Source: Dictyostelium discoideum
Taxonomy: Eukaryota
Reading direction: 5' to 3'
DNA: 64,000 nucleotides
Assembly: GCA_000004695.1 (NCBI GenBank)
Contig: CM000152.2
Coordinates: forward strand, 5,920,001-5,984,000
Positions 10,270 to 14,183 of this stretch are shown here, piece by piece; the stretch's first letter is position 1; the number at the start of each line of letters is the position of its first letter. The position numbers and the translations under genes are program-made. The notes under the pieces were generated by a model. The model saw only the letters and a list, made by a program, of their open reading frames with translations, did no database searches and was not told where the DNA came from.

Positions 10270-12022
10270 TTATATTTTATATAATAATAAACCCATTACC
10301 TGTACACTATAAACTTTTAAATTTTTAATATCATTAAAATTTGTTGATTCTTGTTGATTATCATTATTTATGAAATTAAAATAAATTAATTCTTCATTTT
10401 CACCACCTGCTAATAATCTACAACCTTGAAGAGTTTCATCATAGTATGAAATTCTTTTAATATATGGGTAATCTTTATCAAGTTCAAATGTATGAATTGT
10501 AAGATTTGAATTTGAATTATCAAAGTTTACTAATAAATTACCATTAATAGTATGATCACCATTACCATTAAAAGTTTCATTATAAATTAAAAATTCATTT
10601 CCATGGAAATCTTTATAAAAACCTGCTAAAAATGAATTTGGGATAATTGGAATTTCTTGTTTAATAAGATAATTTTCAATTTGTTGAATTTTAGATGCTT
10701 CTTCATTTAATAGGATTTCATATATTGGTACTAAAATATCAATTGTTGAATTAATATAAATATCTGGTGAATTAATATCTGATAATGATGAAAAGAAGAA
10801 TCCTAATTTTAATGGTCTAACAAATGCCATATTTGAGTGGTATCCTGTTAAATCACCATTCTTTGCTGATATCCAAATTGAATTACTTGTATCATATGTA
10901 TGTAAAAAAGGTATACCATAAACACTAAATCCGTCTCTTAAAAGGTTCATTGGTGAAAATAATTCATTTAATGTTGTTTCTTCTAAATAAAATGATGATT
11001 CACTCTGTTGCTGATTTTCATCACTTAATAAGAAGATCATAAATTTAGCCATATCATTAGCAGTTGAAAAAATGCCACCACCTGGTGAATTCCAACCAGC
11101 TGGTGAAATTGGAGCAATTGAAAAACTACCATTACTCTTTTTATATAATCCAATTGCCATATTATCTTTAACTTTTTCATCATAATTAAATGTAGTATTA
11201 TCCATTCCTAATGATTTAAAAATATTATTTGTAACCCAGTATTCATATGCTTGTTGTTCTTTCATTGTTTTTTTCATTTTTAATGATTCACCTAAAACTC
11301 TACCAAGTAATGAAAATCCTAAATTTGAATAATGTGATAAAATATTTGGTTGTTTTGAAATTAAAAATTGTTTTGATAATTTTGAAAGTATGACTTTATC
11401 ATTACATTTATTTGTTCCATAATCAATTCTATCACATGGAGTCTCTCTTGCCAAACCACTTTGATGAGATGCCAATTGTCTAAATGTAATTTTTTCATTT
11501 CTTTTATCTTTATAAATTGAATTAATTTTAAATTGTGGGAAATAATCACGAATATCATCATCCAATGAATTTATAATACCTTGATCTCTTAATTTAAACA
11601 TCATTAATGATGTAAAAGTTTTTGTAATACTTGCAATTCTAATACTTTTGAAATATAAAAAAAAATAATAAAAAAAAATTATTATTAAAAATATAAAAAT
11701 AAAAAACAATTTTTTAATATCATAAAATTATTTCATACTTATTATTAAGAGTTAAATTTAAAGAATTTTCATCTAATGGATTTATTTTTCCATATGCTTT
11801 AGAGAAAATTATTTCATCCTTGTATACGATAGTGGCAATAAATGATGAAATATTATCTGATTTCATTTTTGTTTGAATTAAATTATCAATTTCATTATAT
11901 GCTTTTAATAATAAAGGATGATTTTGATCAATTTTTATTGGTTTTGGATATGTTGGACATGTTTTAAATAAATTTAAAAATGTAAATATTAAAATTATTA
12001 TATATTTATAATTTGTATTCAT
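10270..12022 (-). CDS. secreted beta-lactamase-like serine hydrolase (class C / family VIII esterase-type), 2 exons: 12022..11739 and 11644..10270
   Basis: Exon 1 carries a signal peptide ([19 protein letters not shown]). Donor aat aa|gtatga at 11738 and acceptor ttcaaaag| at 11645 are in phase and give ...[30 protein letters not shown], with the S-x-x-K nucleophile motif (SITK) and a YSN motif (HYSNLGF). The intron position is identical in the paralogue next door. The ORF-track start at 11709 is a non-ATG artefact. Confidence 0.8.
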
Positions 12023-12393
12023 TTTTTAATTTTTTTTCTTTTTATTAAATTTTTTTTATTATTTAATTTTTTTTTTTTTTTCTTTCTTTTTTTTTTTAAA
12101 AATAAAATAAAAAAATTTTTTAATAATTAAATTAATTTAATAATTCCATGAAAGTTGAGGGGTGATCAATATTTACACACACACACCCACTTGGTAAACA
12201 GTTACTTTTTTTTTGTGTGGGTTTTAGTGGTAAAGTGTAAAATCTCATTTTTATCTTTTGGTGATGTTTTATAAATAAATTAAAAAATAAAAATAAACAC
12301 CCCAAAAGTGAACAGAAAAAAAAAAAAGAAAAAAAATAAAATTAAAATTTATTTTTATTATATTTCTATTATTAGAATAAAAACTATTTAAAA

Positions 12394-12797
12394 CTATTTA
12401 AATAATAAAGAACCCATAATTTGAACACTATAAACAAATAAATTATTTATATCAATATTTTGATTATTATTATTATTATTAAAATCAATAATTGTACCAT
12501 TAATATCTTTAAAAGTGAAATAAATTAATTCATCATTACTTCCACTAGCTATTGTTCTACAAGTTGGTATTGATTCATTATAGAATGAAATTCTTTTAAT
12601 ATATGGATATTCATTATCAAGTTCGAATTTATTTAAAACTAAACTTGCACCATTATAACTTACTAATAATCTATTTAAATAATCACCATATGTTGTTTGA
12701 TTTAAAATTAAAAATTTATTACCATAATCATTTGTATAAATTCCAATTAAAAGTGAATGAGGGATTTTTGAAATAAAAATAGATTCCATAGTATTAT

Positions 12798-12844
<47 letters not shown>

Positions 12845-14183
12845 GAATTTGAACTTGTTGTTGTTGAATTAATTACTGAATCTATTGCTGCTTGTTCTAA
12901 TAATTTTTTATAAACTGGTATTAAAATATCAATTGCAGCATTTGTATAAACATCGCTACTACTAACACTTGTTAATGATGAAAAAAATAAACCTAATTTG
13001 TATGGTTTTACAAATGCAATATTTGATACATATCCTTGTAAGTCTCCATTTTTTGATAAAATCCAAAGAGAATTATTGGTACTATACGAATGTAAAAATG
13101 GCATACCATAGGAAGCAGACCCATCGTTTAACAAATTACTTGGTGAAAATAATTCATTTAATGTTGATTCTTTTAAATAGGATGGTGATCTTATATCTAG
13201 TGAATTATTATTCATACCTAATAAATGTATCAATAGTTTACCCATATCTCTTGCAGTTGAAAAAACACCACCACCAGGTGAATTCCAACCTGATTTTGTC
13301 ATTGATGGTATTGAATATTTACCATTATTATTTACTAATCCTGGTGCAGTATTATTAATAATATCTTCATAATTGAATGTTGTATTATTCATTCCCAATG
13401 GTTTAAATATATTATTTGTAACCCAATATTCATATGGCTCTTGTTCTTTCATTCTTTTCATTCTTAATGATTCACCTAAAGTTCTACCAAGTAAAGAATA
13501 TCCTAAATTTGAATAATGTGATAAAGTAGTTGGTTTTGAAATTAAAAATTGTTTTGATAATTTTGCTAAAATAATTTTCTCTGTACAATTACTTGTTCCA
13601 AATTCATTTCTATGACATGGTGTCTCTCTTGATAAACCACTTTGATGTGATGCCAATTGTCTAAATGTTATAAACTTTTCTTCTTTTTTTTTAAAAATTG
13701 ATTTAATCTTAAATTTTGGGAAATAATCACGAATATCATCATCTAATGAATTAATTATACCTTGGTCTCTTAATTTAAACATCATTAATGATGTAAATAC
13801 TTTTGTAACACTTGAAATTCTAAAACTAAATAATAATTATTTTAAATTAAAAAAACATATAAAAGATTTTTTTAAAATAACTTTTTAATTTCTTTAAATA
13901 CATACTTATGATCAAGAGTTAAATTTGGTGAGTTAATATCTAAATAGTTCAATTTACCATATGCTTTTGAAAAAACAACTTTGTCCATGTAAACAATAGT
14001 TGCAACAAATGATTTAACACCATCAGCTTTCATTTTACTTTGGATTAATAAATCAATATCATTATAAGCTTTTAATAATAATGGGTCATTTTGATCAATT
14101 TTAATTGGTAAAGGATAAGTTGGACATGAATATAATAAATTAGCAAATGTAAATAACAAAAATAAATATAAATAATATTTCAT
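12394..14183 (-). CDS. tandem paralogue of the beta-lactamase-like hydrolase, 2 exons: 14183..13906 and 13825..12394
   Basis: Signal peptide [17 protein letters not shown]. Donor cat aa|gtatgt at 13905 and acceptor tatttag| at 13826 give ...[30 protein letters not shown], collinear with the neighbour. SVTK and HYSNLGY motifs present. A (CAA)n-encoded poly-T tract is inserted at 12790-12850. Confidence 0.8.

Follow-up and report, generated by a model that had tools for sequence, protein, structure and literature searches.

The window analysed here, a stretch of 64,000 nucleotides of Dictyostelium discoideum DNA, contains two neighbouring genes whose products resemble beta-lactamases. What kind of enzyme do they encode, how old is the pair, and is the adjoining phosphatase gene linked to it in function? 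A first-pass annotation had described the locus as a recent tandem duplication of secreted hydrolases next to a secreted purple acid phosphatase (PAP).

Gene models and secretory-type features

Both gene models proposed by the first-pass annotation, minus-strand paralogues of 552 and 569 aa, were reproduced from the sequence. The two genes, designated A and B, lie head-to-tail:

12394-14183, minus strand: gene A, predicted 569 aa, two exons and one intron
13906-14183, minus strand: exon 1 of gene A, with the start codon, a hydrophobic signal-like N-terminus and the mature N-terminal helix; its 3' end is the AA of the split Asn93 codon
13826-13905, minus strand: intron of gene A, 80 nt, GTATGT..TTTAG, phase 2
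12394-13825, minus strand: exon 2 of gene A, including the stop codon; catalytic domain, helical linker, then predicted C-terminal beta-barrel domain
13812-13801, minus strand: motif S98-V-T-K101 of gene A, to which Y197-S-N and K351-N-G are added further on
12798-12845, plus strand TTG, coding (minus) strand ACA/CAA: (TTG)16 repeat, a perfect microsatellite in the inter-domain linker of A
12023-12393, minus strand: A-B intergenic spacer, 371 nt, very AT-rich
10270-12022, minus strand: gene B (DDB_G0282555), predicted 552 aa, two exons and one intron
11739-12022, minus strand: exon 1 of gene B; its 3' end is the AA of the split Asn95 codon
11645-11738, minus strand: intron of gene B, 94 nt, GTATGA..AAAAG, phase 2
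10270-11644, minus strand: exon 2 of gene B, including the stop codon; catalytic domain, linker helix and predicted C-terminal lipocalin-like barrel (about aa 425-552)
11631-11620, minus strand: motif S100-I-T-K103 of gene B, to which Y200-S-N and K356-N-G are added further on

Both introns are of the GT..AG type and in phase 2, and they split an Asn codon (AA/T) directly 5' of FRISSVTK in A and of IRIASITK in B, which confirms that they interrupt the same codon just before the SxxK motif. The spacer must contain the terminator of A and the promoter of B; when it was compared with the region upstream of A, only low-complexity A/T runs were alike, and no other similarity was found. At the protein level, A and B are 58% identical (BLASTP, E = 0), or 62% over 536 aligned codons, and their DNA is 74 to 90% identical in register, at a spacing of about 2.17 to 2.19 kb. 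They are paralogues.

One copy had been credited with a poly-Thr linker at 12790-12850. The perfect (TTG)16 found in A at this place encodes most of a run of 15 Thr. The A orthologues of other strains and species have 3 to 7 Thr at the same linker position, and the (TTG)16 poly-Thr tract was not found in the other Dictyostelium sequences compared.

The N-termini of A and B consist of a hydrophobic stretch followed by a conserved Cys-Pro-x-Tyr-Pro, and hydropathy revealed no further hydrophobic segment in either protein. In each protein there are four cysteines, conserved in position, and 7 to 13 N-x-S/T sequons. These features, with signal peptides assessed by eye and by hydropathy, fit the secretory pathway, in line with the secreted type first proposed.

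Family placement, predicted architecture and nearest bacterial families

Similarity to the beta-lactamase/transpeptidase fold, on which the first reading of the pair depended, is clear: the two proteins match the Pfam family Beta-lactamase (PF00144) with 126.9 and 124.7 bits (cut-off 27, E about 1e-36). The first motif, SVTK in A and SITK in B, is aligned with SxxK in nearly all of 46 family members. For the second, [SY]-x-[NT], both proteins have YSN (residue 197 in A, 200 in B), of which Y and N are invariant in the family alignment; SxxK and YSN are conserved across all dictyostelid members. At the position of the third motif, A and B have K-N-G, and K-[NAG]-G is found across Dictyostelia, so that Lys and Gly are retained and the residue between them, neither Ser nor Thr, departs from the canonical [KH][ST]G.

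The product of gene B is identical to XP_640123 (DDB_G0282555, UniProt Q54SB6, 'Beta-lactamase-like protein 3'), and the next accession, XP_640124, is presumably gene A. The exact 569-aa sequence of A had no match in the protein collection, its 90% cluster being made up of other strains only. XP_640123 and XP_640124 were both placed in 'LACTB-like protein 2', a group that includes vertebrate proteins, by Peitsaro et al. (2008, BMC Evol Biol 8:26, PMC2266909). This phylogeny is the only relevant paper found on A and B; biochemical, expression or proteomic data on them were not found in the literature. Sponge homologues named 'putative beta-lactamase-like 1' (LACTBL1) by NCBI match the gene A orthologue at 1.5e-41, and sponge relatives and the A orthologue match each other ahead of every bacterial-named match. 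Judged by sequence, A and B are PBP/beta-lactamase-fold serine hydrolases (PF00144, MEROPS S12-type) of the LACTB-like protein 2/LACTBL1 lineage, a lineage placement drawn from the literature listing and the sponge matches.

The statement that this fold is rare in eukaryotes was too strong. Full-length relatives occur in all sampled Dictyostelia, in sponges, in EukProt protists and in Naegleria, and four PBP-fold genes are listed for D. discoideum (PMC2266909). Beside A and B there is a third paralogue (P0128). In the protist and sponge relatives, query coverage is 90 to 95% and the architecture is shared from end to end. Recent horizontal transfer from bacteria into Dictyostelium is not indicated, since full-length relatives are present in several unrelated eukaryote groups and since all eukaryote members stand apart from the bacterial outgroup in the neighbour-joining (NJ) tree.

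An AlphaFold model (a prediction, pLDDT 84.5) gave 547 PDB fold matches at E <= 1e-3, the best 50 of which were all PBP/beta-lactamase-fold proteins. The top Foldseek matches were the two-domain proteins Pab87 and IS11, with about 540 columns aligned. The C-terminal domain, which is invisible to Pfam (no match at E <= 10 for six dictyostelid members, DUF3471 (PF11954) included), is modelled as an eight-stranded lipocalin-like barrel. By sequence, the PDB matches were 3ozh, Flp, Pab87, alkaline D-peptidase, IS11 and R61.

Among curated bacterial families, the best-scoring one was the AmpH DD-carboxy/endopeptidase (NCBIfam NF007943, E 2e-30 and 6e-29). The scores of 105.7 and 100.8 bits are well below the equivalog cut-off of 266 bits, and A and B are therefore not AmpH orthologues. 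The class C beta-lactamase model (NF033085) matched at E 1.6e-7 and 2.6e-14, that is, with 30.5 and 52.8 bits for a cut-off of 415. Three assignments had originally been left side by side, namely class C beta-lactamase, family VIII esterase and LACTB-like. The last one stands, as the LACTB-like protein 2 lineage with AmpH-type enzymes nearest among bacterial families, while class C does not.

It is very improbable that A and B are true beta-lactamases, secreted against beta-lactam antibiotics in soil. They do share the fold and the SxxK and YxN motifs with class C enzymes, and many AmpC/ADC structures match the model at a TM of about 0.8 relative to target. However, the class C score is low, the KTG motif is altered, and a barrel domain like the predicted one is characteristic of peptidase, esterase and cyclase relatives rather than of AmpC; moreover, the amoeba has no peptidoglycan target needing protection.

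Age of the duplication and fate of copy A

The duplication proved to be older than first thought. D. dimigraforme and D. citrinum each have separate orthologues of A and of B, arranged PAP-A-B as in D. discoideum, and in D. firmibasis B is accompanied by a remnant of A's 3' end (L006, 7459-7649). In NJ trees, A and B split after D. purpureum and before D. firmibasis, D. dimigraforme and D. citrinum (bootstrap 98 to 100). The A-B dS is 0.48, as large as the dS between D. discoideum and D. dimigraforme orthologues (0.40 to 0.52); these are NG86 values, which probably underestimate dS in an AT-rich, codon-biased genome. The shared intron had been taken to mark the duplication. D. dimigraforme A, three P. 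violaceum genes and C. fasciculata also have it before the catalytic serine, at the same codon and in the same phase; on this distribution, it is ancestral to Dictyostelia.

By the same NG86 method, dN/dS is 0.32 between A orthologues, 0.25 between B orthologues and 0.55 for A versus B, which indicates purifying selection on both copies. Copy A evolves about 1.6 times faster, with a dN to the D. dimigraforme orthologue of 0.165, compared to 0.100 for B. One may ask whether A is degenerating into a pseudogene, with B as the only functional copy. The higher rate would agree with this, as would the expanded microsatellite in the linker, the reduction of A to a 3' relic in D. firmibasis, and the truncated A models in two other assemblies of the D. 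discoideum complex (P0002, 464 aa; P0126, 211 aa). These truncated models may, however, be assembly or annotation artefacts, the D. discoideum copy is an intact frame of 569 aa with all catalytic motifs, and the dN/dS between A orthologues is that of a gene under purifying selection. We therefore regard decay of A as improbable.

The history that emerges is as follows. An intron-bearing gene was tandemly duplicated at the DNA level after the split of D. purpureum and before D. discoideum diverged from D. firmibasis, D. dimigraforme and D. citrinum. Both copies were retained under purifying selection; A gained its microsatellite-encoded poly-Thr linker and was mostly deleted in D. firmibasis. 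The relic found there means at least one loss of copy A. Stated jointly, the family, the architecture and the evolutionary history of the pair are in our opinion highly probable.

As a separate observation, A-B dS is low in codons 151-240 (0.16 to 0.22), and third-position identity between A and B over 90 sites is 0.83 within a genome versus 0.73 to 0.78 across species. Gene conversion between A and B is not established by this, as the difference amounts to a handful of sites.

The PAP gene lies upstream of A on the same strand, and a three-exon model was confirmed for it:

14889-16399, minus strand: purple acid phosphatase gene, 431 aa; exons 16399-15757, 15628-15398 and 15310-14889, introns of 128 and 87 nt

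Its product has a hydrophobic N-terminus and matches PF16656 (Pur_ac_phosph_N, 71 bits), PF00149 (Metallophos, 43) and PF14008 (Metallophos_C, 62), all above cut-offs; the metal-ligand motifs GDMG, GDIAY, GNHD and GHAH are visible in the translation. The three genes had been viewed as a 'secreted-hydrolase island', which may be worded as a co-regulated functional cluster for prey digestion. They do share strand and orientation, and the order is kept as PAP-A-B in D. dimigraforme and D. citrinum and as PAP-B in D. firmibasis. Among such closely related species, however, synteny would be expected in any case. Of the species sampled, the four from the D. discoideum clade are the only ones to show the adjacency, D. 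purpureum lying outside this comparison because its contig stops 1.4 kb upstream; the orthologues of T. lacteum, P. violaceum and C. fasciculata are flanked by other genes, with no PAP among them. A common upstream sequence was sought and not found, nor was any functional link between PAP and A or B. A cluster of this kind is thus quite improbable, slightly more so than the decay of A.

Proposed function and comparison with known systems

With moderate confidence, we favour as the best overall explanation a tandem pair of secretory-pathway PBP-fold serine hydrolases with a D-peptidase-like role. Ser98 of A and Ser100 of B, the serines of SxxK, would form the acyl-enzyme with help from the Lys and from the Tyr of YSN, and the barrel domain would probably restrict access to small substrates. 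The role would be the cleavage of D-amino-acid-containing peptides, for example peptidoglycan stem peptides of ingested bacteria, in endolysosomes or in the medium. This substrate class, proposed from sequence comparison, is tentative, and we place it a little short of even.

With a different specificity, A and B would be family VIII-type carboxylesterases or lipases whose substrates, in the endolysosome or the medium, are lipids or other esters. IS11, a thermophilic two-domain esterase, is among the best matches by both sequence and fold, and weak NCBIfam matches point to AcmB, a methyl acetate hydrolase, and to LipL, an esterase/beta-lactamase. On the other hand, AmpH scores 1e-30 against 1e-6 to 1e-8 for AcmB, and D-peptidases dominate the PDB sequence matches, although neither scores nor matches settle specificity. 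We consider the esterase alternative unlikely, though less so than those weighed above.

The pair is already known, its genes being annotated in a model-organism genome and its family placement having been published in 2008, and as it stands the importance of the locus is small. What is added here is that the C-terminal third, which Pfam does not see, is predicted to be the barrel typical of bacterial two-domain PBP-fold enzymes; that the duplication is old, the intron older still and copy A dispensed with at least once; and that AmpH-type DD-peptidases, not class C beta-lactamases, are the nearest bacterial family. A and B would be convenient knock-out and expression targets for the old idea that bacterivores use PBP-derived enzymes to digest the peptides of peptidoglycan. 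In a wider and rather doubtful extension, phagotrophic eukaryotes may use their LACTBL1-type enzymes as dedicated peptidases for digesting bacterial cell-wall D-amino-acid peptides. If so, the repeated tandem expansions, to two copies here and to three in P. violaceum, and the faster evolution of A would reflect prey-driven diversification, and the amoeba pair would be a tractable model for a first biochemical function in a family with vertebrate members (PMC2266909), for which no demonstrated activity was found in the literature.

Among known systems, AmpH of E. coli, with the related protein 3ozh of Y. pestis, gives the best PDB sequence match (4e-15), in an alignment that spans all three catalytic motifs. 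AmpH lacks a C-terminal barrel and has KTG as motif 3, whereas the amoeba proteins have a predicted barrel and KNG, and are eukaryotic and intron-bearing. A lipocalin-like barrel, as modelled for A and B, accompanies the catalytic domain in several bacterial and archaeal enzymes, namely the Pab87/CubicO peptidase (2qmi), the D-aminopeptidase DAP (1ei5), IS11 (7spn), SurE (6ksu), Ulm16 (8fek) and the C-terminal domain of Rv0907 (4whi), but sequence identity to these two-domain enzymes is only 11 to 17%. Their activities vary, and the architecture does not fix the chemistry, since the same layout serves a peptidase, the esterase IS11 and the peptide cyclases SurE and Ulm16. Many bacterial 'CubicO' matches carry DUF3471, which was not detected in the amoeba domain. 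Compared with class C (AmpC) enzymes, A and B have an added C-terminal domain and an altered motif 3. LACTB has the same fold and motifs, and the fold search with the model gave human LACTB structures at E about 1e-19; it is, however, mitochondrial and filament-forming, whereas A and B have secretory-type N-termini and an extra barrel domain, and D. discoideum has a separate LACTB orthologue, Q55CN2 (PMC2266909). The name 'LACTB-like protein 2' carries no function, as no member with demonstrated activity was found; the group shares SxxK and YxN with A and B, and nothing essential separates the two proteins from it.

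Gene structures and neighbourhood

The window has a G+C content of about 22%; its reading frames are long and rich in Asn/Gln, its introns short and AT-rich. Gene models were obtained by splicing the minus strand at the only sensible GT..AG pairs.

Features of the locus (coordinates, strand, description)
17248-17329, minus: tRNA-Leu(AAG)
20506-20580, minus: tRNA-Val(AAC)
61778-61849, plus: tRNA-Thr(AGT)
16399-14889, minus: purple acid phosphatase (PAP) gene upstream of A, three exons, 431 aa, its product carrying all three PAP-type Pfam domains
14183-13906, minus: gene A exon 1, spliced at GT..AG
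13905-13826, minus: gene A intron, 80 nt, phase 2, GT..AG
13825-12394, minus: gene A exon 2, product 569 aa
12022-11739, minus: gene B exon 1, spliced at GT..AG
11738-11645, minus: gene B intron, 94 nt, phase 2, GT..AG
11644-10270, minus: gene B exon 2, product 552 aa

Just before FRISSVTK (A) or IRIASITK (B), the phase-2 intron cuts an Asn codon (AA|T). The two coding sequences form direct repeats, 74 to 90% identical and spaced by about 2.17 to 2.19 kb; their flanks have only A/T runs in common. Protein identity is 58% by BLASTP, or 62% over 536 aligned codons, and nucleotide identity is 75%. The first-pass annotation had reported two paralogues of these lengths, an intron conserved at the same codon before the SxxK motif, an adjoining PAP gene on the same strand and a poly-Thr tract in one copy, all of which are borne out by the models. 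The tract is a perfect (TTG)16 at 12798-12845 and accounts for the greater part of 15 consecutive Thr in A; other strains and species have a much shorter run (3 to 7 Thr), so that of the window is a local microsatellite expansion.

The same annotation viewed the three genes as a 'secreted-hydrolase island'. Orthologues beyond the D. discoideum clade (D. purpureum, T. lacteum and P. violaceum) have other neighbours: in D. purpureum, an HTTM-domain gene lies downstream, with 1.4 kb of contig left on the upstream side; the P. violaceum neighbours are two further paralogues and a dehydrogenase. This comparison across Dictyostelia gave no evidence that PAP, A and B form a functional unit, and the island reading is not supported.

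Other elements of the locus were recorded. A 68-nt unit is present in 1.9 copies, at 85% identity, in PAP intron 1 and the start of exon 2 (15603-15735). The 3' end of the intron with the first exon 2 bases reads aaaaaaaaggtaatcatgatagatttatagatttatcag, and its degenerate intronic copy aaaaaaaagttggtcattgtcagatttatagatttactg; a decayed pseudo-acceptor and exon start came out of this small internal duplication. A single 3017-aa open reading frame (ORF; 1147-10200, plus strand) converges with gene B and ends 70 nt from its stop codon. It has a ubiquitin-conjugating (UQ_con) domain in its C-terminal part (E 3e-25) and weakly matches, with a score under the Pfam cut-off, a CCCH zinc finger at its very end; genes of 2984 to 3048 aa are similarly placed in D. 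dimigraforme, D. citrinum and D. firmibasis. Short ORFs adjoin the tRNA-Leu gene (17326-17614); of these, 17429-17611 was scanned and gave no match in Pfam.

Age of the duplication and fate of the copies

The duplication, first described as recent, turned out to be old. The order of the window (PAP, A, B, convergent 3000-aa gene) recurs, with orthologues of both A and B, in D. dimigraforme and in D. citrinum. D. purpureum has one gene (L002, its locus sequence, 1412-3019), intronless and in a different-looking locus. In neighbour-joining trees, A and B form a clade with 100% support, outside which D. purpureum falls, and the A and B clades, each including its orthologues, are likewise supported at 100%. 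Trees and synteny together place the duplication after the D. purpureum split and before the D. discoideum clade radiated. At 0.48 (NG86), A-B dS is not below that of D. discoideum-D. dimigraforme orthologues (0.40 to 0.52), in a genome where NG86 dS is probably near saturation.

D. firmibasis has only PAP and B, separated by a 630-nt spacer in which two short stretches (L006, its locus sequence, 7459-7649) translate to A residues 504-527 and 536-569. The first is 79% identical to A compared to just 46% to B, and the two stretches are a relic of an A copy deleted after the duplication.

The single genes of T. lacteum, P. violaceum, C. fasciculata and A. subglobosum fall together with a third D. 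discoideum paralogue (P0128, 44% identical). The P. violaceum locus (L005, 625-5779) holds three tandem paralogues of 530, 502 and 517 aa with a common phase-2 intron, a tandem expansion that this other dictyostelid lineage underwent independently. In all three, and in C. fasciculata, this intron lies in the codon before [VI]RIAS, from which it follows that the A/B intron comes from the ancestral dictyostelid gene; its presence in both copies shows only that duplication occurred at the DNA level. The T. lacteum orthologue has an intron elsewhere, at about codon 66.

Both copies are constrained, as indicated by dN/dS values of 0.32 for A orthologues, 0.25 for B orthologues and 0.55 between A and B; amino-acid change is about 1.6 times faster in A than in B. 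Gene A models deposited for D. discoideum-complex strains (among them P0002, P0125 and P0126) measure 559, 555, 464 and 211 aa, with two internal segments absent from that of 464 aa; either A is truly decaying in some strains, or the variation is noise from annotation or assembly. Over codons ~151-240 (13090-13360 in A, 10900-11170 in B), A-B synonymous divergence is 0.16 to 0.22, compared to 0.4 to 0.9 elsewhere, and third-position identity is slightly greater within one genome than across species. This segment, with its few sites, may be an old gene-conversion tract.

Protein family and putative function

Both proteins match Pfam Beta-lactamase (PF00144) with E about 1e-36, in agreement with the fold first proposed. 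The YSN Tyr and Asn do not vary among 46 aligned sequences, of which at least 90% keep the SxxK Ser and Lys; the D. purpureum nucleophile motif reads S-C-T-K, with a Cys beside the catalytic Ser. Among NCBI curated bacterial families, AmpH, a DD-carboxypeptidase/endopeptidase, was by far the top match (E 2e-30 and 6e-29), although its 101 to 106 bits stay under the equivalog cut-off of 266. The class C beta-lactamase model scored merely 30 to 53 bits for a cut-off of 415. Of the identities initially left to choose from, class C is thereby ruled out; by sequence, A and B are nearest to low-molecular-weight DD-peptidases, and by literature they belong to a LACTB-related eukaryotic lineage.

The pair is indeed already annotated and classified. 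The gene B translation is identical to XP_640123 (DDB_G0282555) of D. discoideum AX4, and is UniProt Q54SB6, 'Beta-lactamase-like protein 3'; from this match and its composition, the window is D. discoideum nuclear DNA. Peitsaro et al. (2008, PMC2266909) grouped XP_640123, XP_640124 and XP_641364 with vertebrate proteins as 'LACTB-like protein 2', Q55CN2 being the true LACTB orthologue, and proposed that bacterivores like Dictyostelium retained and duplicated such genes for peptidoglycan digestion. Our similarity searches agree with this placement. Full-length relatives (30 to 35% identity, 90 to 95% coverage) came from sponges, under the NCBI name 'putative beta-lactamase-like 1', and from eukaryote sequences of metagenomes and EukProt; next were bacterial sequences named 'CubicO group peptidase' (24 to 30%). 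PBP-fold genes are therefore patchy in eukaryotes, not rare as initially supposed. A literature search found no published expression, localisation or activity data for A or B. Directly upstream of the T. lacteum orthologue lies a gene (4646-5599 of L004, the locus sequence) with an SLT (lytic transglycosylase) domain, another bacterial-type peptidoglycan-active fold; it fits the peptidoglycan-digestion idea, though the adjacency may be chance.

The A, B and PAP proteins have a hydrophobic N-terminal stretch and no other membrane-like segments. In A and B alike, four cysteines occupy conserved positions and N-glycosylation sequons are numerous, features that point to the secretory pathway. Past about residue 385, Pfam gave no match even at E <= 10. 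An AlphaFold model of gene B (46 homologues, pLDDT 84.5) has there a long helix, then a beta-rich domain; the C-terminal 126 residues, modelled separately from 14 dictyostelid sequences, reached pLDDT 75. For the gene B model, the best Foldseek PDB matches, over ~540 aligned columns, were the two-domain Pab87 (2qmi) and IS11 (7spn). Family and architecture are assigned with high confidence.

A and B have intact catalytic motifs, the predicted two-domain fold, purifying selection and secretory-type features. They would be acylated at the SxxK serine and act as hydrolases of small peptides that contain D-amino acids, for instance peptidoglycan stem peptides freed from prey, with the barrel, their predicted C-terminal lipocalin-like domain, restricting access. 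This substrate class is our tentative preference, at somewhat under even chances. The closest PDB structures by sequence were 3ozh (Y. pestis 'beta-lactamase/D-alanine carboxypeptidase'), S. aureus Flp, Pab87, alkaline D-peptidase, IS11, D-stereospecific hydrolase and R61 DD-peptidase. IS11 is an esterase, and esterase activity of A and B, the main rival, seems distinctly less probable; true beta-lactamase activity is unlikely. As third motif, A and B have K-N-G, other Dictyostelia K-[NAG]-G and bacterial relatives KTG, HGG or HSG. In DAP, Pab87 and SurE, the barrel packs on the catalytic domain, where it influences how substrates enter or how the enzyme oligomerises, and by analogy that of A and B would pack and act in the same way.
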